NCBI GenBank assembly: GCA_964351475.1
Contig: CAYGOB010000001.1
Location: forward strand, 4,459 to 68,458
DNA from: an uncultured Candidatus Saccharibacteria bacterium
Lineage (GTDB): Bacteria; Patescibacteriota; Dojkabacteria; SC72
DNA length: 64,000 nucleotides
Direction: 5' to 3'
Positions 4,272 to 24,630 of the stretch are shown here, in pieces (positions within the stretch are counted from its first letter, which is position 1; every line of letters begins with the position of its first letter). The notes beneath the pieces were generated by a model. That model had not been told where the DNA came from and made no database searches. It saw nothing but the letters and a program-made list of their open reading frames with translations. A program made the position numbers and the translations under genes.

Positions 4272-4348
4272 ACAGGTCTATAAGGAACCAGAGGATAATG
4301 GCGGGATAAACACGCCTGGAATCTAAAGGGAGACAAATAAGACAGTAT
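4272..4348 (+). repeat. Interspersed promoter-bearing repeat, copy A.
   Basis: acaggtctataaggaaccagaggataatggcgggataaacacgcctggaatctaaagggagacaaataagacagtat. Lies 44 bp upstream of the tandem-repeat protein gene. Confidence 0.7.
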
Positions 4349-4391
4349 GGGAAAGTATGGAGATGTGTTATGTTTGTGATATAATACCCCT

Positions 4392-5351: not shown

Positions 5352-5439
5352 ATGTTTGCGGTAATTGGTTTAACATTTACTTCCCGTAAGGTCCTAAAAT
5401 TCTAATAACAATCCACATAAGCATTCCTGAGTATATTAC

Positions 5440-5515
5440 ACAGGTCTATAAGGAACCAGAGGATGTGGTGGGACATATACGTCTGGAACCTAAAACGAGA
5501 CAAATAAGACAGTAT
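5440..5515 (+). repeat. Interspersed promoter-bearing repeat, copy B (orphan: no downstream + strand gene).
   Basis: acaggtctataaggaaccagaggatgtggtgggacatatacgtctggaacctaaaacgagacaaataagacagtat, followed by aaaaaagggggag. Confidence 0.7.
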
Positions 5516-5658
5516 AAAAAAGGGGGAGATTCTTGTCTAAATAATTCTTGTTTTTTATTATACCTTTATACACAAACACAAAATTCAAAATGTTAACTTT
5601 TTCTTTGCGTTTGATTCCGTCTAAACGGTTGATTTTTGTTATAGAAATTTAAGATACT

Positions 5659-5684
5659 AACCACTAGTAGGTGGTTTTTTAATT
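5659..5684 (+). terminator. Rho-independent terminator-like hairpin plus T-run.
   Basis: aaccactagtaggtggtt (7-bp stem, 4-nt loop) followed by tttttaatttt. Lies 145 bp downstream of repeat copy B and just outside the 3' end of the minus-strand permease gene. Confidence 0.5.
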
Positions 5685-5757
5685 TTAATAACAATATTAT
5701 GAGAAATGAAGGAACATTAAAAATAGTTAAAGAGATATATGCATCGAGAGTACGACC

Positions 5758-7623
5758 CTATTCATATCTTAAAGCATTAAGAGCTGATATCTTTTTAACT
5801 CTTCTAGCTGGGAATATACCAGTAATTAGACCTACAATTAGGGAAATAAGTAGTATTATTAGTACTAGGGAAATAGGAATGTAGGAGACATCAATACCTT
5901 CAAAACCTCTAAATGCTGAGAACATACTTAACAAAAGACTTAGTGATTTTCCACATAACCAACCCAAAATTAAACCTAGTACCCCTCCTATGAGTCCCAT
6001 AATCATAGACTCTGTAAGGAATAATTCAGATACTTCTTCGGCTTTCATTCCCATAGTTTTCATCAAACCAATTTCTCTAGTTCTTTCTAAAAGAGATACA
6101 GTCAAGGTATTAAACATACCTAAAGAAGCTACGGTTAATGCAATCATACCTACTATAGCTAAGATTATTCTAAATGTAGCAAAAAGAGATCTAATTTGTG
6201 ATACTGTATCAACCACGGACCTAGTAATATATCCCATGGACTCAATAGTATTTCTTGTACTTTCTAAATTATCTGTATCATTCACAACCACTCTTAACTG
6301 AGAATAGTTTGATATCCCTAACTGTCTTAAATCTACAAATGGGACATAAAATAATGGTGTAGACTCATCAGGTATTACACCCAAAATAGTATATTCAGTA
6401 GGTACAGACTCAATTTTCTCTATCTCACTTTCTAGTAAATCACCAACTACTACATATGTTACTTCAAATGTTTTACCTAAAGCATCATTTTCTTCCAAAT
6501 TTAACATCTTTAACATAGACCTGTTTACCACAGCCTCTCTTTCTCCATCAGGTAGTGCAACCCTCTTTAACTTGTATGTGGCTCCTGTTTCAAGCTCCTC
6601 TTCTATCTCTACCCAAGGAAGGGCATTTGTAATACCTAAGACATCTACATATCTTGGGACAAGCTCTTTTATTGTAAGCTCCGGAGTATTTTTGACATAC
6701 CCGACTCTTTGTACTTGCCTATTATTCGCCCTCTGCTCCATATATGTACCCTCACTCTCCTCCCACATATAGAATGTACCCTTGATGTAATCAAAATAAT
6801 CCTTCTTTATTAGTTCCCCATAACTTACACCTTCTACTCTTCTTGTATAACCAATTAATTCCTTTTCATCCTCCAAATTGTCATATACCTCTATCCAAAC
6901 TTCAGGGTCAATTTTGTATGACACATCATTTTCACCAACAAACTCAGATACTCCTTTAACCGCATCTGACTCCACTATCTCTACCACAGTATCATTACTC
7001 TCAAACAATTTACCACTTGTAGGTTGTAAAGCAGATTGTTTAAGATAGTCATGAGTTACTCCATACACAGCCATATCAGATACAGAAGATTTGTAATTCA
7101 CTCTCCCAACTACAGATATCAAAGGTAATGCCTGCTCTACATGAGGTAAATCACTTATTTGAGAAATAGTCCTATCATCAATGTTTAATAATCCTCCTGG
7201 TTGTACAGATACATCAGCTTGTCTCATCTCATTTAAACTCGCAACCCTAGTTATTACTAACTCCTGAAGTCCATATCCAATAGAGACTAAGAATACAATT
7301 GCCCCTATACTAACAGATATCCCCCCTATGGTAATAAGGGTTCTTGCTTTCTTAGCATTCATATTATGCAAAGAAAGCCTAATTAGTTCTAACCTTGATA
7401 TTGTCTCCCCATTATTACTATCTAAAAACTTTCTTAAGAACTCATATGCTGGATGAAATATCTCAGAGGCATCTTTTTTAACAATAGATTTAAATATTTT
7501 TGTGTTTAGTAAACTCTCAAAAAGAAAGATTGTAAGATACAAAATTAGAAGGATGATAAAGGATACAGAATGCCAGATACTATTAAGAATCTCTTTTGTT
7601 TTTACTAATACTTTTTCTCTCAT
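5758..7623 (-). CDS. MacB/FtsX-type ABC transporter permease with a large extracytoplasmic domain.
   Basis: C-terminal FtsX signature [34 protein letters not shown]-terminal TM, then a roughly 400-aa periplasmic domain, then 3 C-terminal TM helices. Start overlaps the stop of the upstream ATPase (ATGA). Confidence 0.85.
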   Translation of the reverse strand: MREKVLVKTKEILNSIWHSVSFIILLILYLTIFLFESLLNTKIFKSIVKKDASEIFHPAYEFLRKFLDSNNGETISRLELIRLSLHNMNAKKARTLITIGGISVSIGAIVFLVSIGYGLQELVITRVASLNEMRQADVSVQPGGLLNIDDRTISQISDLPHVEQALPLISVVGRVNYKSSVSDMAVYGVTHDYLKQSALQPTSGKLFESNDTVVEIVESDAVKGVSEFVGENDVSYKIDPEVWIEVYDNLEDEKELIGYTRRVEGVSYGELIKKDYFDYIKGTFYMWEESEGTYMEQRANNRQVQRVGYVKNTPELTIKELVPRYVDVLGITNALPWVEIEEELETGATYKLKRVALPDGEREAVVNRSMLKMLNLEENDALGKTFEVTYVVVGDLLESEIEKIESVPTEYTILGVIPDESTPLFYVPFVDLRQLGISNYSQLRVVVNDTDNLESTRNTIESMGYITRSVVDTVSQIRSLFATFRIILAIVGMIALTVASLGMFNTLTVSLLERTREIGLMKTMGMKAEEVSELFLTESMIMGLIGGVLGLILGWLCGKSLSLLLSMFSAFRGFEGIDVSYIPISLVLIILLISLIVGLITGIFPARRVKKISALNALRYE

Positions 7624-8443: not shown

Positions 8444-11400
8444 ATGATTAATGCCCTAAAAGAATATTTTTTAAAGCCAAGATTTCATATATCTAGGTTT
8501 GAGTTTAATTTAATAGGAACACTGTTTTTAACAATAGGATTGGTAGTAGGTACATATTTAGGATTGTACAATGTATTTAAGGGATTAAGAGCATTTAATG
8601 ATACTATACATGTATGGGAGTATAGTGAAGAGAATATATCAGAATATATATATGATGATAGTATAGTAGGTATTAATGATGAAGGATTGTATGCACCATC
8701 TAATAGGTTAGAGAATGGAGGGTTTGAGGAGGGGTTGGGGGGGTGGAGTAAGAAGGGAGAATATATCCTTAATGATGAATTTACTACAGATAGAGTAGCA
8801 GGAGAGGTAGATGGTACATCTGCTGAACCTACTGGGGGAACAAGGACGGTAATTGATTCGGAAGATTTTATTTCTATAGGAGAAGGAGTGTTAAATGTTG
8901 CGGGTGGAACTGGTACTGAAGGAGACCCAGGTCTTTGGTATCCCTTAGCAATAACCAGGATCCCAGGGAGAATGATTGTAGGTACAATAAATCTGTCAAC
9001 ATTAGGAAACACTCGTTTTGGTTTTGACCTTAACACAAGTGGAGGAATTAATTTTGGTATTAATTTTGGGAGTTCTAGTAGTTTGGCTCTTTACGATGGT
9101 TTATCTTCAGTAAACGTTGGGAGTGCATTATCTACTGATACGAATTATCAACTTGCAGTTATTTTACGTTCCACTGGTACATATTATTACATTAAGGGTG
9201 GGACTTTTGTTAACTGGACTCTATTATGGATAAGTGATAATGCCTCAAATAGCACTGTTTATCCCACAATTGTAGGTAGAACTGGAATTTTCACCGCTGA
9301 CAATATCCGTATCCCCACCCAAACCTGGCTACCTACCCCCTTAGTACATGATACATTTACAAGAGTTAATGGTAATGTAGGTAGTAGTGAAATAGTAGGG
9401 CCAGATGGACAAGAAACACCACAGTTACAATGGAGTTCAGGAGAGATAGAAGATAATAGGATGGTTATTAGACCAGAGTTAGGGGAGGAGGTTATCGTAA
9501 ATGGGGATATGTCTTCTTCAGAGGGTTGGAGTGTAGGTTCAGATTGGTCAATAGCCGACGGCATTGCTTCCAAAGTTGCTGGTACTACGAACCAGAATAT
9601 CTCCCAAGGTGTTCTTACTTCGGGATTATGGTACCAGGCAGTTTGGACACTAGAACGTTCAGCTGGTTCTTTCTGGGCCATGTTTGGTACAACTGCTTTG
9701 ACATATAGTCACACTACCTCTGGGACTTTTACTGAAACAGCACGGGCAAATGGGGGAACAGCAGGTATACGTGGACAATCTGTGGCGGAAGGCTCGGTGG
9801 ATAACGTCTCGTATAAACCCCTTACCCTCTCCTCCCTCTTTTCTACAGTTTCAACTTCGGATGCGGATGTGATTGCGGATGTTAATATAACAGTAACCGC
9901 AGGGACACAGGCGGGATTGGTACTGAATTTGGATAACACTTCAAGCCCTGCTAACTTCATCATTGTATATACAAATGGAACCCAAATCCGTGTAGATGAG
10001 GTTGTGAATGGTGTTTATACAAATAAACAGACTACATCATCCACTTTTACATCTGGGAATTTAAGAGTAATTAAAGATGGTACTAAATACAGAGTATATT
10101 ACAACAATGTATTGGTAGGTACTGAACAAACAATAACAGATGAAAGTATAATAAATAATACTAATCATGGACTATTTTCAACCTACGAAGGTAATAGCTT
10201 TGATAATTTTACAATATGGCCAAGAACAGGATTTACAGATGCACCATTTGAAGAATTAACACCAAGTATAGATACAGAAATAAAATACAAAGGTACTAAT
10301 TCAGTAAAACTTCAAACAGGGGGAGTGGATGCTAACTATTTACAAACAACAAACCTAGGAGATACAGAGATATATACATTAACAGGATATGCATATACAG
10401 ATGGTAGTGAAGTAAGTAGTGAAGATATTAGTTTGTATTATGATAATGACATACTAGAAACAAGATATATAGATATGGGAGAAGGATGGTATAAGTTAGA
10501 AGGAGAAGTAATAGGAGAGGATAGTGAAAAGAGTTTTGGAGTAAGAGTAAAAGCAAATAGGACAGTATATATAGATGAGTTTAGTTTGTATAGAAAGATA
10601 AATAGGATAGATAATGGTATGTTTATAAATGGGTTAGAGGGGTGGAATGAGCAATCACCTAGCGACATAGAAGATCTATTAACATGGATAGATTTTTCAG
10701 ACAAAGATACATTATTTATTAATACAGGGGGGACAACTCCTGTTAATGTAGACGGAGATTTAATATATAGGGTAGCAGATAAAAGTGATGGAAATGATTA
10801 TTGGTATGCTATTAGTGCTGGGGTAAGACCTGTATATAAGGAGAACCAGCTCAATGGATTAAGTGCAGCACATTTTCCTGCTGGAAATTATTTAAGAACG
10901 ATTAATAGTTATGGTACTTATAATAAATCCATATTTACAGTAGCAAGACTTTTAATAGATGAAAACAAAAGAAATCTTTACAACAGGGTGTCATATAATT
11001 TTTGGACGCGTGATGGTGCGATACATCTTGGCAGAGATAGCTATATATCTGTGCCTGCTGTTTCTGATACAAACTACATAATTACTGCTTTATGGGATAC
11101 AGGTTCTAATGCTAGGTTAAGGCTCAATCGGGGGATAGAAGAAGCTACAGGAATTGCGGAAGGTTGGGCTTCAAATTATATGTGGCATCTTATGTCTACA
11201 GCAGCTGAAGAAGGAGGAGAAGGATACATATATGAAAGCATTATTTATGACAGGATATTATCAATCGAAGAGTATACAGCAGTTGAGTCATATCTTAATA
11301 ACAAGTGGTTTCTAAACTCTTCTCTCTCAACCACCACCAAATACACCGGTCCCTCCTCCGCCCAACTTCAAACATCAGACTCTGATGCTACCTTCGTCCA

Positions 11401-14400
11401 ATACCTAAACCTAGCTAACACCGACACCTACACCCTTACTGCATACGCATATACAGACGGTAGCCCAGTAACAACCGATGACATTAATCTGTACTTTGAC
11501 AATGACATACTCCCTACAACCTTTTTAGATGCAGGTAATGGTTGGTACAAACTAACAGCTACTCTAACAGCAACAGACTCTTACAAAGCCTTTGGAGTAC
11601 AAGTAAAAGCAAACAAAACAGTAAATGTAGACAATTTTAGTTTAGACAGAGGAGAGCGATATGTAATATATACATCCAATGCATACACAAATGAAACAAT
11701 GACAAGTTGGGATACCTTCTGTGAAGGAGATTTGGAATACCAAACCTGTACCCCTGACTCAACACAAGAAGGCTACTCAGAAATCAGATACCAACTCTGT
11801 ACAGACGATGGGTCAGTGTGTGAAAGTGAAAACAAATGGCAATACTGGAATGGTACAGAGTGGGTAGTAGCAACTGATTTGGACATACACAACAACAGTG
11901 CAAGTGATCTAACCCAACAAGTAATGCAAACAATAGATACGGAAAACAAAAAACTCTCTGTTAAAACAATACTAACCTTTGATGGATACAATCCTCCCAT
12001 ATTACCTAAGGTATCCATAGGACTGAGTGCAGATACAATACCACCAGAGACAAATGCAAGTAACCTAATCATGAAAACACAACCAGGAGGAAGAACCATA
12101 ACTAACGAAGGCTGGAACAATACTCTAATGCCATACATTACCTGGACCCAAGGAGCAGACAACAAAGGAGGCTCAGGCCTTAAAGGCTACTGTGTATACC
12201 TAGGCCAAGATCAAACTGCAGACCCTCAAACTAGTAAAGGAATACTAGGAGAATCTCCAGTAGACTTAGAAACCTCCACCTGTGGATTCATAGTAGAGGA
12301 TAATATACTAGATCTAAGTAATACAGACTACCATTCAGAACCATGGCTAACTAGTTCAACAGAACCCTACTACCTAAAAGTAAAAGCCATAGACAGAGGA
12401 AACAATGTGTACGAAGGAGAAAGTGAAACCTTTACATTCTACATAGATACAACACCTCCTACTAATGTATCCTTCCTTTCTTGTGCTTCAGGTAATTTCT
12501 CTAATGCTTTGGATATGAATTTCTCTTGGCCAACAACAGCAGGCCCAGAAGCAAAAGATGATTACTCAGACATACTAGGTTGGCAATACAAGCTTAATGA
12601 TATTAATGCACAGTGGAAAGGTACTCAAACACACACAGGATTAGAAATTGAATACATACCTCTTGGTCAATCAATATATACCCTTAAACAAAGTGATGCA
12701 GAAACAATCATATCAGGAAGTAATGTAGTTTACTTTAGAAGTGTAGACAATGTAGGTAACTTTTCATCAGGAGCAACCATTAGAACATGTAGCATATCCT
12801 ACGGAGGAGCAGCTCCTAACTTTGAAGATACAGACAAAGTAACAATTACTCCTAATATATCCCAAGACAACCAATACTCTTTAAGCTGGCCAAGTGCCAC
12901 CCCCGCTCCAGAAACCCAAGTATCTAAATACTACTACATGATAAATACAGCTCCTCCCTCAACACTTTCAACCTTAGAAGCAAACCCAGCAACATACATT
13001 AACAATTCAACATCAACAGCAGTACCTTTAAGAGCACTCCCTAATGTAAACAAAGGAGTAAATACAGTGTATGTAGTTTCTGTAGATAACAGTGAGATAC
13101 CTAACTACTCTCCAAGTAATTACATAACAGGAACATTTACTCTTAATTCAACAGACCCAGACAATGTAGGAGATTTAGTAGCATCAGACTCATCCATAAA
13201 GTTAAAATCTCAATGGAATGTAACCCTAACTTGGGTAGTACCAGAATACAAAGGAGCAGGTAATTTAACGTATGAGATATACAGGTCAACTAATGGAGTA
13301 GACTTTACACATGTGGGATCAACCTCAGGACTTTCATATGTAGATAGTGCACCTCAGTCACGTATGTATTTTTACAAGGTATATACTAAAGACGGAGCAA
13401 ATTCTTTAAGTTCAGGGAGCAATGCAGTATCCATAACACCAACAGGAAGATGGACAACGCCACCAGAACTCATATCCGAGCCTGAGGTAGAGAATGTAAC
13501 AACACAAAGAGCAACGATAGTGTGGTCTACATCTAGGTCAGCAGACAGTAGAATTCAGTTTGGAACACAGAGTGGTAAGTATGCAGATGTAGAACCTTCA
13601 ACACCTAATCATGTAACCTCTCATGTAATGTCTCTTTCAGGATTAACCCCTAATACAACATATTTTTACAGAGCAAAATGGACAGATGAGGATGGTAATG
13701 TAGGTATTTCAGAAGAAAAAACATTTACAACAGCACCACCACCGGTAATTAAACAAGTAGAAGTAAGAAATATTGGATTAGAGTCTGCAGTAGTTAACTT
13801 TACATCAGAGGGAGCTTCGGGAGTTAAGATATATTACGGAAGAACATCCTCTTTTGGGGGAATTAGAGAGATATCAACCTCTAGTTTAGAGTCTACCTAT
13901 TCAGTAGAACTCTCTGATTTAGAGGACGGTACTAGATATTACTTTAAGATTAATACTTTAGATGTGGATGGTAGTGAATACGACAACCAGGTTAACGAGT
14001 TCCAAACCTTACCTCGTCCTCGAGTAAGCAATGTAAGATTACAACAGGTATCAGGTACAGCACAAAGTACAATACTAGTAACATGGGATTCAAATACAGA
14101 GATATCATCCATAGTGACATACTGGCCAGAAAACAATCCATCTCAAGCAAGAGATGAGGTATCAGTAGAGTTAAAGAAAGGAGAACACAGAATGATGATT
14201 AGAGGATTAGAACCTACAACTGCATACAATCTCCAAGTAAAAGGAAGAGACAAGATGGGTAATGAGGCTGTATCAGATACCCAAAGATTTACAACAGCAA
14301 CAGATACAAGACCTCCAGTAATTACAGATTTAAGAGTAGAAGGTTCAACCATCCCTCCATTTGCAACAACAGCCCAACAGACCTCAGTACAGATAGTGGT

Positions 14401-14692
14401 ATCATGGACAACAGATGAGCCAGCTACAAGTCAGGTAGAGTTTGGAGAGGGTACAGGTAGTACGTATGCACAAAGAACACAGAAGGATTCTAATTTTAGT
14501 TACAATCATACAGTAGTAATATCTAACTTAGTACCATCTCAGGTATATCATCTTAGAGCAGTATCAGAGGATATGGCAGGTAATGTAGGGTATTCCATAG
14601 ATGTAGTAACAATAGCACCTAAGGTAACAGACAATGCCCTAGATTTAGTAATACAGAATTTAATGGAGACATTTAGATTTTTAAGAAGGTAG
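8444..14692 (+). CDS. Giant (2082 aa) signal-anchored surface protein. It has an N-terminal ConA/LamG-like region, two CBM-like jelly-roll modules, an Ig/Fn3-like central region and four C-terminal purple-acid-phosphatase-N-type Fn3 domains.
   Basis: N-terminal TM (LIGTLFLTIGLVVGTYLGLY). Two internal paralogous modules (KYKGTNSVKLQTGG...FGVRVKANRTVYIDEFSL and KYTGPSSAQLQTSD...FGVQVKANKTVNVDNFSL). Four repeats of the type ATIVWSTSRSADSRIQFG...YFYRAKWTDEDGN...TFTTA. The C-terminal ~1000 aa are collinear with ORF 21535-24630. Confidence 0.8.
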   Translation: MINALKEYFLKPRFHISRFEFNLIGTLFLTIGLVVGTYLGLYNVFKGLRAFNDTIHVWEYSEENISEYIYDDSIVGINDEGLYAPSNRLENGGFEEGLGGWSKKGEYILNDEFTTDRVAGEVDGTSAEPTGGTRTVIDSEDFISIGEGVLNVAGGTGTEGDPGLWYPLAITRIPGRMIVGTINLSTLGNTRFGFDLNTSGGINFGINFGSSSSLALYDGLSSVNVGSALSTDTNYQLAVILRSTGTYYYIKGGTFVNWTLLWISDNASNSTVYPTIVGRTGIFTADNIRIPTQTWLPTPLVHDTFTRVNGNVGSSEIVGPDGQETPQLQWSSGEIEDNRMVIRPELGEEVIVNGDMSSSEGWSVGSDWSIADGIASKVAGTTNQNISQGVLTSGLWYQAVWTLERSAGSFWAMFGTTALTYSHTTSGTFTETARANGGTAGIRGQSVAEGSVDNVSYKPLTLSSLFSTVSTSDADVIADVNITVTAGTQAGLVLNLDNTSSPANFIIVYTNGTQIRVDEVVNGVYTNKQTTSSTFTSGNLRVIKDGTKYRVYYNNVLVGTEQTITDESIINNTNHGLFSTYEGNSFDNFTIWPRTGFTDAPFEELTPSIDTEIKYKGTNSVKLQTGGVDANYLQTTNLGDTEIYTLTGYAYTDGSEVSSEDISLYYDNDILETRYIDMGEGWYKLEGEVIGEDSEKSFGVRVKANRTVYIDEFSLYRKINRIDNGMFINGLEGWNEQSPSDIEDLLTWIDFSDKDTLFINTGGTTPVNVDGDLIYRVADKSDGNDYWYAISAGVRPVYKENQLNGLSAAHFPAGNYLRTINSYGTYNKSIFTVARLLIDENKRNLYNRVSYNFWTRDGAIHLGRDSYISVPAVSDTNYIITALWDTGSNARLRLNRGIEEATGIAEGWASNYMWHLMSTAAEEGGEGYIYESIIYDRILSIEEYTAVESYLNNKWFLNSSLSTTTKYTGPSSAQLQTSDSDATFVQYLNLANTDTYTLTAYAYTDGSPVTTDDINLYFDNDILPTTFLDAGNGWYKLTATLTATDSYKAFGVQVKANKTVNVDNFSLDRGERYVIYTSNAYTNETMTSWDTFCEGDLEYQTCTPDSTQEGYSEIRYQLCTDDGSVCESENKWQYWNGTEWVVATDLDIHNNSASDLTQQVMQTIDTENKKLSVKTILTFDGYNPPILPKVSIGLSADTIPPETNASNLIMKTQPGGRTITNEGWNNTLMPYITWTQGADNKGGSGLKGYCVYLGQDQTADPQTSKGILGESPVDLETSTCGFIVEDNILDLSNTDYHSEPWLTSSTEPYYLKVKAIDRGNNVYEGESETFTFYIDTTPPTNVSFLSCASGNFSNALDMNFSWPTTAGPEAKDDYSDILGWQYKLNDINAQWKGTQTHTGLEIEYIPLGQSIYTLKQSDAETIISGSNVVYFRSVDNVGNFSSGATIRTCSISYGGAAPNFEDTDKVTITPNISQDNQYSLSWPSATPAPETQVSKYYYMINTAPPSTLSTLEANPATYINNSTSTAVPLRALPNVNKGVNTVYVVSVDNSEIPNYSPSNYITGTFTLNSTDPDNVGDLVASDSSIKLKSQWNVTLTWVVPEYKGAGNLTYEIYRSTNGVDFTHVGSTSGLSYVDSAPQSRMYFYKVYTKDGANSLSSGSNAVSITPTGRWTTPPELISEPEVENVTTQRATIVWSTSRSADSRIQFGTQSGKYADVEPSTPNHVTSHVMSLSGLTPNTTYFYRAKWTDEDGNVGISEEKTFTTAPPPVIKQVEVRNIGLESAVVNFTSEGASGVKIYYGRTSSFGGIREISTSSLESTYSVELSDLEDGTRYYFKINTLDVDGSEYDNQVNEFQTLPRPRVSNVRLQQVSGTAQSTILVTWDSNTEISSIVTYWPENNPSQARDEVSVELKKGEHRMMIRGLEPTTAYNLQVKGRDKMGNEAVSDTQRFTTATDTRPPVITDLRVEGSTIPPFATTAQQTSVQIVVSWTTDEPATSQVEFGEGTGSTYAQRTQKDSNFSYNHTVVISNLVPSQVYHLRAVSEDMAGNVGYSIDVVTIAPKVTDNALDLVIQNLMETFRFLRR

Positions 14693-16575: not shown

Positions 16576-17172
16576 ATGAAAACCTTAAAACTTTTAAAAA
16601 AGTTAAACCTAATTTTCTCCATTATAATAGTTGTTATTGCTATTTATATTCTAATATATCCTCTTATACCAGAAATAGCTTTTAGAATGAGTGCTAATAA
16701 ATTCCAGGGATATGCATATCAATCTACAAAGACGATAGAAGTTTTACAAGAGGAAGCTAAAGAACTTCCTCCAATACCTGAAGATAATAGACTTGTTATT
16801 CCTAAAATCTATGTAAATGCTCCAATAGTAGATGGAGAAGATGAGTCAGTCTTAGATTTTGGTATGTGGCGTATTCCAAATACAAGTACTCCAGACAAAG
16901 GGGGCAATACAGTTATTGCTGGTCACAGAACTCTGTATACAAGTGGTCCAGATACCTTATACAATTTAGATAAGATTGAAATAAATGATTTACTATTGGT
17001 ATATTGGCAAGGTAAGGAATATGTATATAAGGTTTATGATATTACAGAGGTGAGTTCGGAGAGTATGGAAATTTTAGATAATACAATAGATTCAAGAATT
17101 ACTTTATTTAGTTGTACACCAAAATGGACATCAGAACAAAGATTGGTAGTAAAAGCCACTCTTCAACAATAA
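16576..17172 (+). CDS. Sortase-family transpeptidase.
   Basis: N-terminal TM. Catalytic His in VIAGHRTLY. TLxTC-type Cys motif ITLFSCTP. Conserved Arg near the C-terminus (EQRLVVKA). Confidence 0.8.
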   Translation: MKTLKLLKKLNLIFSIIIVVIAIYILIYPLIPEIAFRMSANKFQGYAYQSTKTIEVLQEEAKELPPIPEDNRLVIPKIYVNAPIVDGEDESVLDFGMWRIPNTSTPDKGGNTVIAGHRTLYTSGPDTLYNLDKIEINDLLLVYWQGKEYVYKVYDITEVSSESMEILDNTIDSRITLFSCTPKWTSEQRLVVKATLQQ

Positions 17173-17265
17173 AATCTAGGATCATTTTTGAATTAATAAC
17201 TCTTGTATTTAGAACAATTCTAGTCTCTATTGGAATCCTATATATTATTCGACATTCTCAAAATA

Positions 17266-18231
17266 TTATCTCTCTTTGGAAGTTCTTGACGAGAACATAG
17301 TTTCTCTTCGAGATAATACCAACAGAAGGGTAGAGATACCTGCAAGTACTAATATTACTATATTCCATGTAATTCCTTTTGTACTTAAAGTAGTACCATT
17401 TGTACCTGGTAATTTAGCGGTAGTATCTGTGCTTGTGTCTGTGGTTGTGGTCGTGGTTGCAGAGGCTACACATATCTCACTAGTAATAGTATCTGAATCT
17501 AATGTAACCGCAGCATTTCTAGCTAATAATCTTCCATAAACTGTTACGTCGGTGGTAGCAGAGATTGATGTTAATGCCATTATGGTTCCTACAAACGTTG
17601 AGCCTGTACCAAGTGTTGCAGAACTTGTAACTTGCCAGAAAACATAACATGATTGAGCACCATTTATAAGTCGGACTTCACTGCCAGAAGCAGTTACTAA
17701 ATCTGAAGAAGCTTGAAAAATGAAAACTGCATTTGGATCTCCCTGAGCATCAAGTATTAATGGGCTCTCAGCTGTTATATTTGCGGTTGTAGCATTTCCA
17801 AAAGCATAAACACCTGAAGTTAAGGTTTGTCCACCAAGTTGGTTATCTACATCAGTAAATGTTTGAGTTGGTGTTCTACCAGCAGCATCAAGATAGGCGG
17901 TTGTAAGATCGTTTTTAGCTTGAGTTAACAAATCAGGATTATTTACTGATCCTGCAGGTCCGGATGCATCTACAGAATAAATAGTTCCAGTTACTTCCTC
18001 AGCTGTTAGACCAGCATAATTACTACCAGAGGCAGGACTTAAACCAACATCTCCTGTAATAATAGAAGTTGGAATATTCGTAATTTCTGTACCAGCTAAA
18101 ACTGCAAAACTTTCAGCAGTACCAAGATTTACTGTTGTTAGTGCAGTTTGAGCATTTACAAGTTGAATTCCAATTATAGCAATAACAAAAGATACAAGCA
18201 TTGTTATTGAAATCTTACTAAATGTTCTCAT
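17266..18231 (-). CDS. Ice-binding-like (DUF3494) surface protein with a Thr-rich stalk and a C-terminal cell-wall sorting signal.
   Basis: Signal peptide. DUF3494 signature AESFAVLAGTEITNIPTSIITGDVGLSPASG. Linker ATTTTTTDTSTDTT. Then KLPGTNG motif, hydrophobic helix ITWNIVILVLAGISTLLLVL and positively charged tail SRRETMFSSRTSKER. Convergent with the sortase gene. Confidence 0.75.
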   Translation of the reverse strand: MRTFSKISITMLVSFVIAIIGIQLVNAQTALTTVNLGTAESFAVLAGTEITNIPTSIITGDVGLSPASGSNYAGLTAEEVTGTIYSVDASGPAGSVNNPDLLTQAKNDLTTAYLDAAGRTPTQTFTDVDNQLGGQTLTSGVYAFGNATTANITAESPLILDAQGDPNAVFIFQASSDLVTASGSEVRLINGAQSCYVFWQVTSSATLGTGSTFVGTIMALTSISATTDVTVYGRLLARNAAVTLDSDTITSEICVASATTTTTTDTSTDTTAKLPGTNGTTLSTKGITWNIVILVLAGISTLLLVLSRRETMFSSRTSKER

Positions 18232-18336
18232 TGAAAAGCCCCACTAAACTTATTAATTACAACATAATTGTAATCTTTTATATTTTAAGGGTTTTAAGGA
18301 GAAATGTCAATTTTTGAAGGTTTTCTACTAATGATT

Positions 18337-18391
18337 GATATTGGCGGGACATACACGTCTGGAACCTAGAATGAGACAAATAAGACAGTAT
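18337..18391 (+). repeat. Interspersed promoter-bearing repeat, copy G (right half plus a short left stub).
   Basis: gatattggcgggacatacacgtctggaacctagaatgagacaaataagacagtat, followed by aaaaaggggaggg. Upstream of the DGR target gene. Confidence 0.7.
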
Positions 18392-18514
18392 AAAAAGGGG
18401 AGGGTATATGTCTCAAATTTGTTTTTTGAACCTTTTGTGAATAAGTTGGGATGCAAGTATGCAACCGACACATCTTCTTGCAAAATATTTTTATTTCTTG
18501 TAAATTATACTAGG

Positions 18515-19393
18515 ATGCAAAAAACAAACAAGAATAAAGAGATGACCAAGTTAGAAACAGTACTAATTATTTTGATAGCCATAGCAACTATTGGATCATT
18601 TCTGGCAGGAAGGGCAGTAGCAGAACAACATGAGGGTACTCCTAAAGCAGATTCAACCTCAATAATAAAACAACTATCCGATGACCTTACAGCACTAGGA
18701 TACGGTTCAACTGAACCAGGTAGTTGGGGCAATGCTGGTGAAATGTGGAATAGGATATATTCAGCAGGAGTATGGGTACCATCTTTAGCAGATGCTCAGG
18801 ACTCAGATGTAGTATCTGGAAAACAATTCTATTCAGGCTCTGACCGCACATTGAGAACAGGCTCTTTTCAAACTATAGATTGGGAGAAACAATCTCTACT
18901 TCAAATGGATAACAGGGATAGTACAGACTATGGAGAGACAAGTAGTTGGGACAAGACTAATAATAGCCCAGAGGTTTGGTATGATGAGGTAACAGGTTTG
19001 TATTGGAGTGCAAGTCAGGGTAGTATGGCAAATGATTTTGTAAGGTCTACCTGTGATTTTTACACTACAGTCCCAAGAGGAGATTATAATGGGGGGGATG
19101 AGAGTTGTGATGCCGCAATAAATCATTGTGCAACATTGAGCCTAGCTACACATACAAATGCTTCAGCAAAGACAGATTGGTATTTACCATCTCAGATAGA
19201 GTTAATGCAGGCATACATAAATGGAATATACAAGAAGACCAGTACTGGTTGGGTTACTACAAGCCAATTTTGGTCTAGTACCGAGTTTCAGAGTTATCCT
19301 ACTATTGCATGGGGCACTTACCTAGGTAATGGACAGACGAGCCCTCATACTAAGACCACGAGCCTCGCTGTTAGGTGTGTTCTCCGGGATTAA
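18515..19393 (+). CDS. DGR target (variable) protein: signal-anchored, with a C-terminal DUF1566 (Lcl-C / C-type-lectin-like) domain carrying the variable region.
   Basis: DUF1566 signature DWYLPSQIELMQAY...FWSSTE...AWGTYLGNG...TSLAVRCVLRD. The track ORF starts at 18335 inside repeat copy G, so the start is more likely the M at 18515 (MQKTNKNKEMTKLETVLIILIAIATIGSFLAG). The last 123 nt are homologous to the TR. Confidence 0.8.
   Translation: MQKTNKNKEMTKLETVLIILIAIATIGSFLAGRAVAEQHEGTPKADSTSIIKQLSDDLTALGYGSTEPGSWGNAGEMWNRIYSAGVWVPSLADAQDSDVVSGKQFYSGSDRTLRTGSFQTIDWEKQSLLQMDNRDSTDYGETSSWDKTNNSPEVWYDEVTGLYWSASQGSMANDFVRSTCDFYTTVPRGDYNGGDESCDAAINHCATLSLATHTNASAKTDWYLPSQIELMQAYINGIYKKTSTGWVTTSQFWSSTEFQSYPTIAWGTYLGNGQTSPHTKTTSLAVRCVLRD
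19267..19389 (+). other. DGR variable region (VR) at the 3' end of the target gene.
   Basis: 123-bp homology to 19721-19843. About 19 of 20 mismatches fall at positions that are A in the TR. The last 41 bp (19349-19389) are identical to the TR. Confidence 0.85.
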
Positions 19394-19483
19394 ATACTAT
19401 AGGGCGTTTGGTTGTGGGTATTTTAAATATTTCCCCTTTTTCTTTTTGTAATACCTATTTTAAAATCAAAACAACGCCCGATT

Positions 19484-19505
19484 TACAGTGTATTTATACA
19501 CTGTA
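19484..19505 (+). terminator. Perfect 9-bp palindrome hairpin downstream of the VR (tacagtgta-ttta-tacactgta) followed by an AT-rich tract.
   Basis: Seen directly. Weak intrinsic terminator for the target gene, or the DGR VR-proximal structural element. Confidence 0.35.
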
Positions 19506-19720
19506 ATTTAAAATTTAAAAAATTCCTTGCAACATACTAATTAATATGCAACAATTATCATAAGCAAGATCTTACAATCTCAACTCCAAAGATGAGCAAT
19601 GGGTTGTGAGGGAGGCATAATATTTAATCCTACTTGCTGTACCTATTAGGTAATGTTATACAAAGAATCTTCTGTTTAATACATCAGGTTCTTGGTGGAT
19701 TTAAAAATTAGCAAGTTTAG

Positions 19721-19843
19721 ATTTTGGTCTAGTACCGAGAATCAGAATAATACAACTAATGCATGGAACACTAACCTAAATAATGGAAATACGAACAATA
19801 ATACTAAGACCACGAGCCTCGCTGTTAGGTGTGTTCTCCGGGA
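19721..19843 (+). repeat. DGR template repeat (TR).
   Basis: Homologous to the VR. The TR is dense in AAT/AAC codons and reads FWSSTENQNNTTNAWNTNLNNGNTNNNTKTTSLAVRCVLRE in the VR frame. Track ORF 19692-19892 is this TR, not a gene. Confidence 0.85.
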
Positions 19844-19852
19844 GAAGATATT

Positions 19853-20215
19853 ATGCCTCAGGCAAATAATACAGACAAACCCTTATATTTAGCTGTGTAC
19901 AAGCTCATTATCTATCTGTATAGTATAGTTCACAATCTTCCAAAAGAACATAAGTATAGATTAGGAAATGACATCATAGACATTAGTTGGAAGACCCTAG
20001 ATTCCATAATGTACACAAATACATTAGGAAACGAAGATAAACATATCCAGATAAAGAAAACCTTAGCAATATTTAATACCTTAAAATATAGGTTAAGGGT
20101 TTTAAGTGATTTAAAACTCTTAAGTCATAGGCAATATGCACACATAATTAAACAAACGGTAGAAATAAATAAAATGCTAAGGGGTTGGTACAATTGGTCT
20201 AAAAAACTTGTATGA
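19853..20215 (+). CDS. avd: Avd-like accessory variability determinant (small four-helix-bundle protein).
   Basis: About 121 aa, basic and helical (YKLIIYLYSIVHNLPKEHKYRLGNDI...LKLLSHRQYAHIIKQTVEINKMLRGW). Sits immediately 3' of the TR, the position typical of DGR avd. Start chosen at the M after a GGGAGAAG SD-like stretch. Confidence 0.55.
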   Translation: MPQANNTDKPLYLAVYKLIIYLYSIVHNLPKEHKYRLGNDIIDISWKTLDSIMYTNTLGNEDKHIQIKKTLAIFNTLKYRLRVLSDLKLLSHRQYAHIIKQTVEINKMLRGWYNWSKKLV

Positions 20216-21382
20216 GTCTTGAGGTTCTAAATAGGACTTCAGTATCCCAAAATGCTTTTCATATATATTCTTCCTTAAACGATACGAGTTACTCCATCTT
20301 AGGTGTCCAAAAGTAGAGTTAATACTTGTACAGATAGATTCAAGATCTTCTTTAGAAGGAGGTAATTTAATCTGGACAGCCTCTTCAATACAAAAACGTC
20401 TGTTTATGAGAAAACCGTTATTAAAGTAATGTAATTTTTTCTTCAGATTTCCAACTGTCCTGTTTCTGGATAGTATATATTCTGGTCTAATAACATATCC
20501 TACAAAATCAATCCCCTGATACACGCTACCATAGGTGGTTTTTTCTTTCTTTGTATTTAGTTTTAATTTTTCTAAAAGAAAATTCTCTGTTAGTTTCTCT
20601 GCTTTTTGTAATTCTTTTATGTTATTACTAATCAAAAGCATGTCATCGGCGTATCTTAAATAGTATTTGATTTTTAATTGACGCTTAATGAATTGATCTA
20701 CTTCATTTAGATACAAATTAGCAAAAAACTGTGAAGTCAAGTTCCCTATAGCTAAACCTTTCTTTTTGGGTATAGTAAAGAGGCTTTTACCTTTGGGTAG
20801 AAGCTGTAAGAGTGTTTTGTCTCCCTGTAATTCGAAGTCTTGGCAGGGGTTGTGATAAATGATCTTCATAGAAAGCCACGTTAGGTCGTCAATATCTTTT
20901 GTTGGCATAGGAAGTTTTGAGAGATCCTTCAAAAGTATTTGAGCAAGTATATCTTTATCTATGGAGTAGAAGAAACTTCTAATATCCATTTTAAGGTAAT
21001 ATGCTTTAGAGGTATTATTATGTGTGATCTTATTAAGAAAACTAGATGTTCGTTGAACACCTAGTAAGCCACCTTTATTTTTTCTACAAGCAAGAGAGTC
21101 AAAGATAAATTTTTTATCTATTTCATCTTGAATGTACATGATTAGTAAGTGATGAATAATTCTGTCGTTAAAGTAGGCGGCAAATATTTCACGAATGGTA
21201 GGGTAAGATATTACAAAGCATGAGGAGGTCCCTATTTCATAACTTTTTTCTCTGAGAGCAGTTGATAGGATGTGGAGGGTGTCTTCATAATCTAATTCAC
21301 AATAGAGTGCATGATTACTATTTCTTTTGCCTTTTCTACAAGAATAATATGCTCTAAGTAAGGATGAGAGATTAAAAATCAT
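20177..21382 (-). CDS. DGR reverse transcriptase.
   Basis: RT motifs: LAIGNLTSQFFANLYLNEVD (the DGR-specific I/LGxxxSQ motif 4, in place of the group II intron QGxxxSP) and YLRYADDMLLI (YADD catalytic box). 401 aa. Adjacent to the TR/avd. Confidence 0.9.
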   Translation of the reverse strand: MIFNLSSLLRAYYSCRKGKRNSNHALYCELDYEDTLHILSTALREKSYEIGTSSCFVISYPTIREIFAAYFNDRIIHHLLIMYIQDEIDKKFIFDSLACRKNKGGLLGVQRTSSFLNKITHNNTSKAYYLKMDIRSFFYSIDKDILAQILLKDLSKLPMPTKDIDDLTWLSMKIIYHNPCQDFELQGDKTLLQLLPKGKSLFTIPKKKGLAIGNLTSQFFANLYLNEVDQFIKRQLKIKYYLRYADDMLLISNNIKELQKAEKLTENFLLEKLKLNTKKEKTTYGSVYQGIDFVGYVIRPEYILSRNRTVGNLKKKLHYFNNGFLINRRFCIEEAVQIKLPPSKEDLESICTSINSTFGHLRWSNSYRLRKNIYEKHFGILKSYLEPQDSYKFFRPIVPTP

Positions 21383-21534
21383 CTCTGATATTATATCATT
21401 AGGTCCTTGGGATTAACACAAAACTAATTTTCTTCTATTTGCCGTACTCTATTTTTAAAAAGACTCAATGTGTTAAACTCTATATAGTCTGTATTCTTGT
21501 CTTTTAAGCGATCTAATGCTAAACTTTTTCTAAC

Positions 21535-24500
21535 ATGAAAAAACCTGTCCGGATAAATATAAAAATACCAGCATTAACGTTACTCCTCTTCGCTATTATA
21601 GGTATATCAATATTCTTCCTCTCCAGAGTATATGCTACCAACCAAACTCCAATTAAAGGAAGTGCTACTGTACTAAATACCTCTAATGAAATATTCTTTA
21701 CCTCTAGTGTATATGGAGCTAACGTAGTAATATCGGATCCAGACCCCGAAGATGAAAACAAACGTACAATCTCTGGATATGCATGGTCTCAAGATATTGG
21801 GTGGATAAAGTTTACTGCAGGAGAATCCCCTGGGGTATTTGTAGATTATGCAACAGGACAAGTAAGTGGTTCTGCCCATGTAATGAACACAGGTAATGAA
21901 ATTAAATTTGATTCTAACAACAGTAATACAATTGTTAATACAAATACTGGAGTATTTAGTGGATATGTTTGGTCTGAGGATGTAGGGTGGATAGATTTGG
22001 GAACAGACCAAGTATATGTCCAAGACACACTACCTCCTCACAACCCAGATGAAATATCAATATATTCAGATGGAAGTAGAACAAAAGAGATTGTGATTTT
22101 GGAAGGAAATGTTTACAACTACAGTAATCCCCATATAGAGTGGGAAGAACCCATAGATCCCAGCACAGAATCTCACGGTTATCAGTCTAGTGGCATATCA
22201 GGATACTACGTATATTGGGGGCCAAGTAATACAGCTATACCCACAAGCTCAGGTACTTTTCAAACAGATAATTACATAGATGTAGAAGTAACCCAAAGTG
22301 GTATGCACTACTTAAACATTCAAGCAGTAGACAATCACGGAAATATACATACCAATCCTGAACATGAATATACTGTTTTAGAGTACAAAGCAGACATTAT
22401 TCCCCCAACCAATGTTAAATACATAACTACACCAAGTGGAAATTTTGGAAATGTTAATGACATGTTCTTTAGTTGGCCAAGTGCTCCAGGAGTAGCAAGC
22501 AGTGATGAAAATGGAATACTCGGATGGCAGTACAGTCTTAACGATGTCAGCAGTTGGACAGGAACCCACGAAAGTGAAAGATTTGACCTTGAGTACATAC
22601 CATTTGAAGATACTACCTACTCCCACTACTTTACAGAAGAAAAAGACCTGGGAAATATGGTAGTAGGTAACAACATCATATATTTTAGAACCATAGACAA
22701 TGCAGGCAATTTTAGTGGGTATATATCTGGAGGAATCTCATACGGAGGTTTGGCTCCTACCTTTGGAGAAGAACACAATGTGACTGTAACTCCCAACACC
22801 AACACCTCTAACGAATTCTCTCTCTCATGGCCCTCTGCCACACCAGAGGAGGGAAGAACCATAGTCTCATATTACTATATGATAAATAGAACACCTCCTA
22901 GCACATACAATACTTTAGTAGACAACCCCTCTCTTTATGTCCCTGTTACAACAACATCTGTATCTACAAGGATGTTAAACGGAGCCGTAAAAGGAAGCAA
23001 CACAGTATATGTCGTAGCTGTAGATGACTTAGATGGATACTCTCCAAGCAACTTTATTACTGGCACATTTACCCTTAACAGCACTCTCCCAGACCCTGTA
23101 ATTAACCTAAGTATAGCAGACACCTCAATACGTGAAGCCAAACTATGGAGAGCAAGTTTAACTTGGGAGGCTCCTGCTTACAAAGGAGATGGTAACCTCT
23201 CCTACGTTATACAAAGAAGCCTAAATGGTAGTACATGGGCTACGGTAGGTTCAACAACAGGAACGTCATTTTCTGACATTGTCCCAGAAAGTAGAACATA
23301 CTATTACAGAATAGGGGTCTCTGATGGTTCTGACCAAAGCATAGCAAATCCAACCCCCTCAACCACAGTATCCTCCTTTATTCAAGGAAGATACACAGAA
23401 GCACCAGAGTTACTCTCTGGAATCATAGTATCTAATGTCGGAACAAGAAAAGCTACAATATCGTGGGTAACAAGTAGAGAAAGTGATACTAAAATTGCAT
23501 TCGGACTAAGTAGTAATGACTACTTTGAAGAAGAAGTATACAGTTCAAAACAGGTAACAGAGCATGAAATAACGCTACATAATCTCCAACCTGAAACGAC
23601 ATACTACTTCAAAGCCAGATGGACAGACCAAGACGGCAATACAGGAGAAAGCAAAGAAGTCTCCTTTAGAACAACTGACTCTCCCCAAGTTTACTCTTCA
23701 AATGTAGATATGGTTGGGCTAGATTATGCCATAATATCCTTTGAGGTCTTTGGTGCTAGCAAAGCAGCCGTAGTATATGGAAGGTCTCTAGCATATACAG
23801 CAATTGAAGAGATAAACACCTCTCCTGCAAGAAGCAAATACTCTGTAGTTTTGGAAGACCTAGACGATGGGGTTGAATACAATTTCAAAATTAGGTTAAC
23901 AGATGCAGATGGATATATCTATGACTCCATAGAAAACAACGTCTTTAGAACACCTCCTAGACCACAGATATCGAATGTACGAGTACAAGAATTAAGAGAG
24001 GTAGCAAGTCCCACAGTCGTATTTAGTTGGGAAACAAATACACATACTAACTCAATAGTTAGATTTAGAGAAGATTTTGAAGGTGCAAGAGAAAGAGACC
24101 AAGTAAGTATGGAAAAAATAAAGGGAGAGCATGAGATGACATTAACAGGACTGGATTCAGAAACCCCATATATTGCCTATGTAGAAGGAGTAGATGACTA
24201 TGGTAACAAAGCAGTATCCGAGGGCGTGAGATTTACTACCGATGTAGATACCAGGCCGCCTAAAATATTGAATGTGAAAATTGAGCAGGACTTACAAGGT
24301 CGCTCTGTACAAACTGACAGAAGCAGAAGTGCCCAATTCATTATTAGTTGGGAAACGGATGAACCAGCAACAAGCAAGATAAATTATGGAGAAGGAGGGG
24401 GAGGAGCATATACCTCTAGTTCAAGATTAGACCAAGAGTACAGAATGAAACATCTTGTCATAGTATCTGGTCTAACACCTTCAAAAGTATATAGTTTAGA

Positions 24501-24630
24501 AATTGAATCCACCGATCCATCAGGAAACACAGGCAGATACGGTCCACTAGTATCCATAACTCCAAAATCTGCTAATACTGTTTTAGAAACAATACTCAAT
24601 ACTATGTCAAATATGTTTAATATATTCTAA
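21535..24630 (+). CDS. Large (1031 aa) secreted Fn3/PAP-N-repeat surface protein, paralogous to the C-terminal half of ORF 8444-14692.
   Basis: Signal anchor (ALTLLLFAIIGISIFFL). Collinear similarity to 8444-14692, for example IPPTNVKYITTPSGNFGNVNDMFFSWPS...GWQYSLND...YFRTIDNAGNFS...SYYYMINRTPPSTY...TGTFTLNST, and four ATISWVTSRESDTKIAFG-type domains. Its stop overlaps the start of the downstream ABC gene. Confidence 0.8.
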   Translation: MKKPVRINIKIPALTLLLFAIIGISIFFLSRVYATNQTPIKGSATVLNTSNEIFFTSSVYGANVVISDPDPEDENKRTISGYAWSQDIGWIKFTAGESPGVFVDYATGQVSGSAHVMNTGNEIKFDSNNSNTIVNTNTGVFSGYVWSEDVGWIDLGTDQVYVQDTLPPHNPDEISIYSDGSRTKEIVILEGNVYNYSNPHIEWEEPIDPSTESHGYQSSGISGYYVYWGPSNTAIPTSSGTFQTDNYIDVEVTQSGMHYLNIQAVDNHGNIHTNPEHEYTVLEYKADIIPPTNVKYITTPSGNFGNVNDMFFSWPSAPGVASSDENGILGWQYSLNDVSSWTGTHESERFDLEYIPFEDTTYSHYFTEEKDLGNMVVGNNIIYFRTIDNAGNFSGYISGGISYGGLAPTFGEEHNVTVTPNTNTSNEFSLSWPSATPEEGRTIVSYYYMINRTPPSTYNTLVDNPSLYVPVTTTSVSTRMLNGAVKGSNTVYVVAVDDLDGYSPSNFITGTFTLNSTLPDPVINLSIADTSIREAKLWRASLTWEAPAYKGDGNLSYVIQRSLNGSTWATVGSTTGTSFSDIVPESRTYYYRIGVSDGSDQSIANPTPSTTVSSFIQGRYTEAPELLSGIIVSNVGTRKATISWVTSRESDTKIAFGLSSNDYFEEEVYSSKQVTEHEITLHNLQPETTYYFKARWTDQDGNTGESKEVSFRTTDSPQVYSSNVDMVGLDYAIISFEVFGASKAAVVYGRSLAYTAIEEINTSPARSKYSVVLEDLDDGVEYNFKIRLTDADGYIYDSIENNVFRTPPRPQISNVRVQELREVASPTVVFSWETNTHTNSIVRFREDFEGARERDQVSMEKIKGEHEMTLTGLDSETPYIAYVEGVDDYGNKAVSEGVRFTTDVDTRPPKILNVKIEQDLQGRSVQTDRSRSAQFIISWETDEPATSKINYGEGGGGAYTSSSRLDQEYRMKHLVIVSGLTPSKVYSLEIESTDPSGNTGRYGPLVSITPKSANTVLETILNTMSNMFNIF

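Follow-up and report, generated by a model that had tools for sequence, protein, structure and literature searches.

The window analysed here, a stretch of 64,000 nucleotides (nt) of contig CAYGOB010000001.1 from an uncultured Candidatus Saccharibacteria bacterium, carries a diversity-generating retroelement (DGR) composed of a target gene that ends in a variable repeat (VR), a template repeat (TR), the accessory gene avd, and a gene for a reverse transcriptase (RT). The window is part of a cellular chromosome, with genes for RecJ, GltX, IleS, and five tRNAs and a GC content of ~35%, and its assignment to the Candidate Phyla Radiation (CPR, or Patescibacteria) is based on the labels of related contigs. 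An earlier reading of the same DNA (hereafter, the original prediction) had placed the TR and avd on the + strand and the RT on the − strand, with the two genes converging on each other. The open reading frame (ORF) map, Pfam scans, and a repeat search confirm that arrangement, and natural variants of the cassette indicate that it is active.

The target gene (18515..19393, +) encodes a protein with a membrane helix at its N terminus; the VR lies in its C-terminal Lcl_C (DUF1566-type) domain. Pfam PF07603 Lcl_C matches residues 215-349 of the long ORF at 1.7e-12. Its start is uncertain: the ORF opens at a TTG at 18335, gene callers on other contigs pick 18371 or 18515, and the resulting calls are 340, 292, and 283 aa long (contigs L095-L103; L numbers designate loci and contigs of the comparison set). 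The VR (19267..19389, +) makes up the final 41 codons of this gene, and the TR (19721..19843, +), detected by the repeat search, is its direct repeat of 123 nt, the two lying 454 nt apart. Over these 123 nt, the repeats are mismatched at 17 TR adenines and one other position, T19790. Because the mismatches sit at + strand TR adenines, the TR RNA must be of + sense, as originally predicted. Both repeats end in an invariant 43-nt 3′ segment, relatively GC-rich, and the flanks beyond diverge.

Only 9 nt separate the end of the TR from the ATG of avd (19853..20215, +; ORF 19829/19853-20215), whose Shine-Dalgarno sequence, GGGAG, lies at 19840-44. The gene encodes 120 aa from this ATG, and gene calls on other contigs give it 120 or 128 aa. 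Its product is identified as the Avd accessory protein by its score against Pfam bAvd PF22296 (4.8e-15, 56.4 bits, cutoff 40), while the NCBIfam model DivGenRetAVD gives 63.6 bits, under its cutoff of 80. The RT gene (21382-20177, −) encodes 401 aa that match RVT_1 at 3.6e-17 and contain the motifs IGNLTSQ and YADD; the I/LGxxxSQ signature is DGR-specific. The protein belongs to the DGR clade of RTs: its best match among solved structures is 8ub7_A (E 4.5e-25), described in its entry only as ‘Reverse transcriptase’, 328 aa, which we take to be the Bordetella bRT, and group II intron and other RT structures match at 5e-7 or weaker. The 3′ ends of avd and the RT gene overlap convergently by exactly 39 bp (20177..20215, both strands), both stop codons counted, where about 39 bp had been predicted. 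No second RT, on the + strand or elsewhere, and no second avd, TR, or VR came to light in the 64 kb when these were searched with a TR pattern, with tblastn, and with profiles against all six-frame ORFs.

Evidence that this cassette works comes from its natural copies. Exactly this RT protein is found on 23 contigs, which come from many samples, and at least ten independent metagenome assemblies encoding it show the same arrangement and gene order; because the layout recurs in independent assemblies, it is not an assembly artefact. The organism is present in the assemblies ERZ27247823, ERZ27247798, and ERZ27247803 and in the JGI 33000775xx samples. Six distinct VRs were found among eight copies from different samples with identical RT and both repeats present, and 31 of the 37 variable VR positions are TR adenines. 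Contig L098 is identical to the window over the VR-TR spacer, the 5′ domain described below, the TR, avd, and the stretches compared of the target gene (400 nt) and the RT gene (600 nt), and yet its VR departs from the window VR at 24 of 123 positions. Measured against its own TR, the L098 VR has 16 mismatches, exclusively at adenines. Adenine-directed diversification of the VR is thus ongoing. Within the window-matching strain, the TR, for its part, is invariant. In a second strain (L097, L099, L100, and L103), the TR carries three substitutions relative to the window, at positions 94, 98, and 99 (window 19814-19819), and avd likewise carries three; the VRs of this strain have the bases that match their own TR at 94 and 99, and at 98 they have a base that differs from that of the window. 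Because these VRs mirror the TR substitutions, non-adenine changes in the TR are also copied into the VR. Altogether, this pattern is the signature of TR-to-VR transfer with adenine mutagenesis, and the cassette is active although its RT lies on the opposite strand. The observed arrangement is real, and the interpretation first placed on it is supported.

We scanned one-genome-per-species contigs and metagenome contigs for related cassettes and obtained 94 loci, in which avd was found by profile and TR and VR by adenine-biased repeats. Layouts were counted over the 70 cassettes with a detectable TR, a few of the antisense ones being near-duplicate contigs. The three closest lineages, with RTs 59-62% identical to that of the window, are L001 (Saccharibacteria), L015, and L002 (Dojkabacteria). 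All three have the order VR-TR-avd-(RT), where parentheses mark a gene antisense to the TR, with a convergent overlap of 36 bp, L002 being cut before its VR; the overlap is therefore kept in related genomes. The VR/TR differences are confined to adenines, 15 in L001 and 12 in L015, and these two loci also hold a homologue of the target gene. More broadly, the RT is antisense to the TR in 19 of the 70 cassettes, distributed over the orders VR-avd-TR-(RT) (12 loci), VR-TR-avd-(RT) (three), VR-TR-(avd)-(RT) (three), and one other. In a quick neighbour-joining tree of the RT, computed without support values, all 19 cluster as one group, sister to the cassettes with the co-directional order VR-TR-avd-RT. 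Judging from these sequences, the inverted RT looks like an inherited trait of one lineage, within which avd later moved and flipped. Two of the relatives have peculiarities of their own. The RT of L002 (2900-3708) is without residues ~21-79, and an IS200/REP-type Y1 transposase-like ORF (162 aa) lies just upstream; L002 keeps avd, the overlap, and the 5′ RNA domain, and its RT copy may be decaying or may reflect an assembly gap. L003 (Paceibacterota) has two DGRs of unlike layout 1 kb apart (1238-3282 and 4299-6347), one VR-TR-avd-RT and the other VR-TR-(avd)-RT, the B3 variant of Wu et al.

The persistence of the overlap raises the question of whether it is itself a control device, in which colliding polymerases, or the antisense RNAs of avd/TR and RT that overlap at their 3′ ends, would throttle the DGR and the overlap would be under selection. 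Its length of 36-39 bp in all four members of the lineage fits such a role, as does the lack of any terminator-like hairpin in the 650 nt that follow the RT stop codon on the RT-sense strand (in the window, L015, and L002), so that RT transcripts could cross avd, the TR, and the 5′ domain in antisense. However, the same RT group includes antisense RTs without an avd/RT overlap, for example in the 12 VR-avd-TR-(RT) loci. The coding content of the overlap argues along the same lines: the RT tail FRP..P corresponds to the avd GW..W codons in reverse reading (TGG read as CCA) and is confined to the overlapping lineage, whereas the avd GW..W motif is retained in relatives that lack the overlap (L003, L004, L005). 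Since the avd motif is kept without the overlap and the RT tail is not, the overlap is probably a by-product of compaction, and selection on it as a regulator seems unlikely.

That the RT and the TR belong to separate transcription units, as had been claimed, follows from the confirmed strand arrangement. Each unit had further been predicted to need a promoter of its own, the RT around 21.4-21.5 kb and the TR somewhere in the ORF-free gap at 19.39-19.72 kb. Candidate motifs do lie where expected. On the + strand, a putative TR-avd promoter (19528..19556) consists of TTGCAA (19528-33), a 17-nt spacer, and AACAAT (19551-56), with a TG at 19548-49; likewise, L001, L015, and L002 have AT-rich −10-like hexamers 2-7 nt ahead of the conserved GCAAGATC. 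On the − strand, the candidate RT promoter (21398-21390) is a consensus match, a perfect extended −10 element, TGATATAAT, 7 nt before the RT ATG, and L001 has TAGTATAAT (TATAAT) 8 nt before its own. No Shine-Dalgarno sequence precedes the RT ATG. These features suggest that the RT mRNA is leaderless or nearly so and starts in a region shared divergently with the neighbouring surface-protein gene. At their other ends, the two transcripts must overlap by at least 39 nt. A generic terminator scan of 18200-21800 was uninformative, returning 3 sites against 1.8 expected, and a terminator-like hairpin downstream of avd (20525-20549) was set aside as it is unconserved in L001 or L002.

The TR RNA could also arise without a promoter of its own, by read-through from the target gene, in which case the locus would comprise a target-TR-avd operon and an RT unit. 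The shared + strand of target, TR, and avd and the weakness of promoter prediction speak for this alternative. It has to contend, however, with two stable hairpins after the target stop codon (19402..19510, +), a long imperfect one at 19402-19479 and one with a 10-bp stem and a 4-nt loop at 19483-19510. Both are AT-rich and begin 9 and 90 nt past the stop codon; the fold of 19390-19530 has an energy of −33.1 kcal/mol (z = −4.79), and 0 of 200 shuffles are as stable. In addition, conservation starts abruptly at 19559-19563, right behind the −10-like hexamers noted above, the remaining spacer being unalignable. Read-through as the source of the TR RNA is, in our judgement, improbable. The hairpins could be a terminator of the target gene, a homing hairpin on the VR side, or both; DGRs typically have, besides the initiation of mutagenic homing ends IMH and IMH*, an inverted repeat just downstream of the VR. 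The hairpin sequence is unconserved in L001 or L015.

The DGR is embedded in a cell-surface gene cluster, since a sortase and an anchored surface protein adjoin the target. These two are encoded just upstream of the target, within 16576-18231: the sortase (Pfam 3.9e-26) and, on the opposite strand, an ice-binding-like protein whose C terminus has a membrane anchor and a sorting signal of the LPGTN type. Next to the RT gene and divergent from it, a large surface protein (21535-24630, +) has an N-terminal membrane helix, SGYxWxxxxGW repeats, and FN3 and purple-acid-phosphatase-N domains, and is without a VR. The same neighbour occurs in L001 (160-408, as an antisense trace) and in the Moranbacteria contig L004/L027 (L004 3200-4858), the window and L004 proteins matching at a BLASTP E of 3e-10. 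Further away, an ORF of 2082 aa (8444-14692, +), with a faint match to an MXYO-CTERM-anchored protein family, is probably another giant surface protein.

The gap between target and TR, described in the original prediction as ORF-free, holds the candidate TR promoter, and roughly half its length is taken up by a conserved structured RNA that is fused to the TR. This domain (19561..19726, +) spans ~165 nt directly 5′ of the TR. Starting at ~19561, the DNA shows a strongly conserved block shared with L001, L015, and L002, whose RTs are ~60% identical, and the remainder of the spacer is unalignable. The fold that RNAalifold predicts for the block shows compensatory changes and consists of a 5′ hairpin and, behind it, a three-way junction. 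From 5′ to 3′ on the + strand, the parts are the P1/P2 hairpin (19570-19611); strand a (19612-19625), followed by TCCT at 19628-31; the 5′ strand of P3 (19632-39); a short hairpin, P4 (19640-52); a long hairpin with internal loops, P5 (19659-97); an A-rich linker (19698-19708); and the 3′ strand of P3 (19709-16), which stops 4 nt short of the TR. The minimum-energy fold of 19561-19862 alone yields every helix (z = −2.7).

A covariance model of this RNA (R1), built from the four sequences, found full-length matches in L017 (7e-10), L067 (2e-7), L003 (1.6e-4), L032, and L050, and weaker ones in L018, L026, L021, L087, L031, L064, and L045. In most loci with a known TR, the 3′ end of the match coincides with the TR start or lies a few nt off. 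The matches occur in several cassette layouts; in canonical avd-TR-RT cassettes, the element lies between avd and the TR. In a 15-sequence model alignment, the fraction of paired cells is 92.7% (shuffled controls: 67.5%) and falls to 37-49% when the partners are offset by 1-3 columns; double changes occur in 37 of 41 pairs. Rfam 15 has no match at 19350-20300 at E up to 10, none in 12 relatives at E up to 1, and, at gathering thresholds over the whole window, nothing at the element. Wu et al. 2018 (PMC5758913) and Yan et al. 2019 (PMC6642488) likewise describe no RNA structure 5′ of the TR. The 5′ domain, found neither in Rfam nor in the papers surveyed, thus appears to be undescribed, and it may explain why the opposite-strand layout works.

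A second helix ties this domain to the far side of the TR. Strand a, GAGGCATAATATTT (19612-25), pairs with strand a′, AGATATTATGCCTC (19846..19859, +), in a 14-bp helix, and the nearby TCCT (19628-31) pairs with GGGA, the final 4 nt of the TR (19840-43), so that the a:a′ helix encloses P3-P5 and the entire TR. The duplex is much stronger on the template side, with strand a pairing at −25.7 kcal/mol with the TR flank and −13.5 kcal/mol with the VR flank. Complementarity is kept though the sequences vary, as in GCACAGA/TCTGTGC (L001), GGCTAAAAAT/ATTTTTAGCC (L032), GGTTAAAATTC/GAATTTTAACC (L026), and a perfect 13 bp in L019. The mean duplex energy is −16.8 kcal/mol for cognate and −7.8 kcal/mol for non-cognate strands, the cognate ranking first in 9 of 10 loci. 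An automated test anchored on P3 placed the cognate in the top three for 19 of 66 loci, where ~3 are expected, and gave no a:a′ signal in Clostridia relatives. The a:a′ tests are anchored on the model alignment or on P3, and the register of the helix varies between loci; an unanchored test (115-nt upstream windows against the TR flank) was discarded as too noisy, the window itself ranking 15th.

Strand a′ holds the avd start codon (19853-55) in the window, and likewise in L015 and L002, which opens the possibility that the 5′ RNA serves avd as a riboregulator or translational leader and stands outside the reverse-transcription ribonucleoprotein, as its folding should block avd translation. The distribution of the domain makes this very unlikely. 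It tracks the TR and not avd: it sits between avd and the TR in the avd-TR-RT cassettes L050, L087, L031, and L064, and it precedes the TR even where an antisense avd (L017, L018) or an antisense RT (L019, L042) lies downstream. Moreover, the avd ATG of L001 lies ~30 nt past a′. Nonetheless, a folded DGR RNA may preclude translation of the gene downstream, and vice versa. In L087, the equivalent strand has an ATG about where the RT match begins. Finally, a recent rearrangement, a decaying element, or a mis-assembly, with diversification performed by an RT elsewhere, is scarcely credible: one of the three close relatives, L002, does have a damaged RT (without ~21-79) and an IS200-like transposase gene upstream, but the RT of the window itself is undamaged and the same protein occurs on 23 contigs, VRs vary at adenines while the surrounding sequence is unchanged, a whole RT group has inherited the layout, and the 64 kb hold no other RT.

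The best explanation, in which we have considerable confidence, is an active chromosomal DGR of a CPR-type bacterium organised as two converging transcription units. (i) The + strand unit would be transcribed from ~19560 and would comprise the structured domain, the TR, and avd. The 5′ domain would grip the TR at both ends, through P3 upstream and through strand a plus TCCT on the last 4 TR nt and the next 14, giving a functional DGR RNA of ~19561-19859 in which ~16 nt would be needed 3′ of the TR. (ii) The − strand unit would express the RT from its own, probably leaderless, mRNA. (iii) RT and Avd would then assemble in trans on the TR RNA, the TR would be copied with adenine errors, and the resulting complementary DNA (cDNA) would replace the VR in the Lcl_C-type surface protein gene.

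How an RNA lacking a long 3′ extension might serve as a template is suggested by the RNA of the Bordetella phage DGR. Cryo-electron microscopy of that system (bioRxiv 10.1101/2023.10.23.563531) defined an Avd-binding stem-loop, a template:primer duplex, a cPRT Stop, a Thumb Ring, and a bRT-binding stem-loop. Along the Sp RNA, the Avd-binding stem-loop comes first, then the primer strand and one strand of the stop duplex, then a short stem-loop and adenosines with a single-stranded ring, and last the long stem-loop that binds the RT; the partner stop strand is located immediately 5′ of the TR, and the template strand is at the TR 3′ end (bioRxiv 10.1101/2023.10.23.563531). In the window, the cyclic order is P1/P2, a, P3 5′, P4, linker, P5, A-rich linker, P3 3′, TR, and a′. 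Because this is the same cyclic order with the ends moved, we propose that the Sp functions lie 5′ of the TR, with P1/P2 as the putative Avd-binding stem-loop, a as the primer strand, P3 as the stop duplex, P4 as the short stem-loop, and P5 as the RT-binding stem-loop. The cDNA would be primed in cis from 19612-19631 paired to 19840-19859, and synthesis would stop at P3 (19709-16). By this analogy, the DGR RNA of the CPR lineage could be a circular permutation of the Bordetella-type RNA, cis-primed and self-contained, enabling the repeated shuffling and inversion of avd and RT, a tentative proposal that we regard as a real possibility short of a probable one. Such an RNA would explain why the TR is directly followed by avd or RT, in sense or antisense, how a gene on the other strand can provide the RT in trans, and why the ends of TR/VR homology coincide with P3 (4 nt upstream) and a′ (2 nt downstream).

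Several observations weigh against this picture of two units and a permuted RNA. The permutation match is one of topology only, with the same helix set and cyclic order as the RNA of Handa et al. if permuted and no detectable sequence homology; the ends are placed differently, P3 lies wholly upstream of the TR, and no conserved priming adenosine is evident, the putative primer nucleotide not being conserved as adenosine, unlike A56 of the Bordetella phage RNA. Avd-binding stem-loops are located 3′ of the TR in many DGRs, including those of CPR (Handa et al., bioRxiv 10.1101/2023.10.23.563531). On the RNA side, the 15-sequence alignment was fitted to the model, favouring structure, with margins that are large nonetheless; the E-values of R1 in distant loci are weak (0.01-5); and aligning the 3′ half of the RNA with MAFFT only, which misplaced one sequence, gives support to P5 alone. 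On the transcription side, both promoters are predicted from consensus matches only, and a generic sigma-70 scan of 18200-21800 is uninformative, returning 16 sites against 14.9 expected, no more than by chance. A search for conserved terminators came up empty for both units, and antisense read-through by RT transcripts may extend over avd and the TR.

The conserved, covarying RNA domain 5′ of the TR and the helix that bridges the TR are the more useful result of this analysis, as current mechanistic models put all functional RNA 3′ of the TR and conservation surveys reached only 40 nt upstream. Should the 5′ domain indeed fill the role of the Sp RNA, it would offer a natural permuted version in which to test essential RNA-protein contacts, would explain the architectural plasticity of CPR DGRs, and would amount to a compact unit, with the domain, TR, and tail in ~300 nt, for possible transfer into engineered diversification systems. 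By itself, the strand arrangement contributes little, separate RT and template transcripts being already on record. The natural data do back separate transcripts, as the VR is rewritten at adenines in otherwise identical genomes despite the opposed RT.

Comparison with the Bordetella phage prototype BPP-1 (mtd-avd-TR-brt) reveals both shared and divergent features. The bRT is the nearest solved RT structure, Avd is the partner protein, TR and VR differ at adenines only, the VR ends the gene of a ligand-binding surface protein, and RNA helices tie the TR ends together. Unlike in BPP-1, where all parts are on one strand, the RT is here on the opposite one. Similarly, the 140-nt Sp RNA of BPP-1 lies 3′ of the TR, before brt (Handa et al. 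preprint; the RT-10 motif of Weinberg et al. 2017, PMC5737381), whereas in the window the structured RNA is 5′ and the avd ATG follows within 10 nt, with no structured RNA of the BPP-1 type between the TR and the next gene. The label ‘atypical’ given to the architecture in the original prediction is therefore apt relative to this prototype and less so in a wider setting, as the layout is already recorded and is inherited in a group of relatives.

Opposite-strand RT and TR had been recorded by both surveys with which the locus was compared. Wu et al. 2018 catalogued families A-E with 48 variants and found that DGRs are mostly single-strand, though TR and RT can occupy different strands (PMC5758913); Yan et al. 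2019 listed 122 patterns, of which the inverted-RT G5 is >20 times rarer than the canonical one (PMC6642488). The window fits neither the canonical B1 of Wu et al., with avd-TR-RT on one strand, as it has TR-avd with the RT opposite, nor the CPR-typical B3, TR-(avd)-RT, as avd is co-oriented with the TR and the RT is inverted; a true B3 cassette is found at L003 4779-6347. The order VR-TR-avd-(RT) with a convergent avd/RT overlap is absent from the main text of PMC5758913 and PMC6642488, and L015, which is GenBank LDZU01000026.1, may already be in the supplementary tables of those surveys. Thus, the layout is a documented minority class, typical of its own lineage. The closest parallel is provided by the sister CPR cassettes VR-TR-avd-RT (L003, L005, L021, L032, and others), with RTs 38-44% identical to that of the window. 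They share the order of target-VR, 5′ RNA domain, TR, and avd, as well as the a:a′ and P3 helices, and differ in that the RT follows avd on the same strand (with an 8-bp overlap in L003), whereas that of the window is inverted in place.

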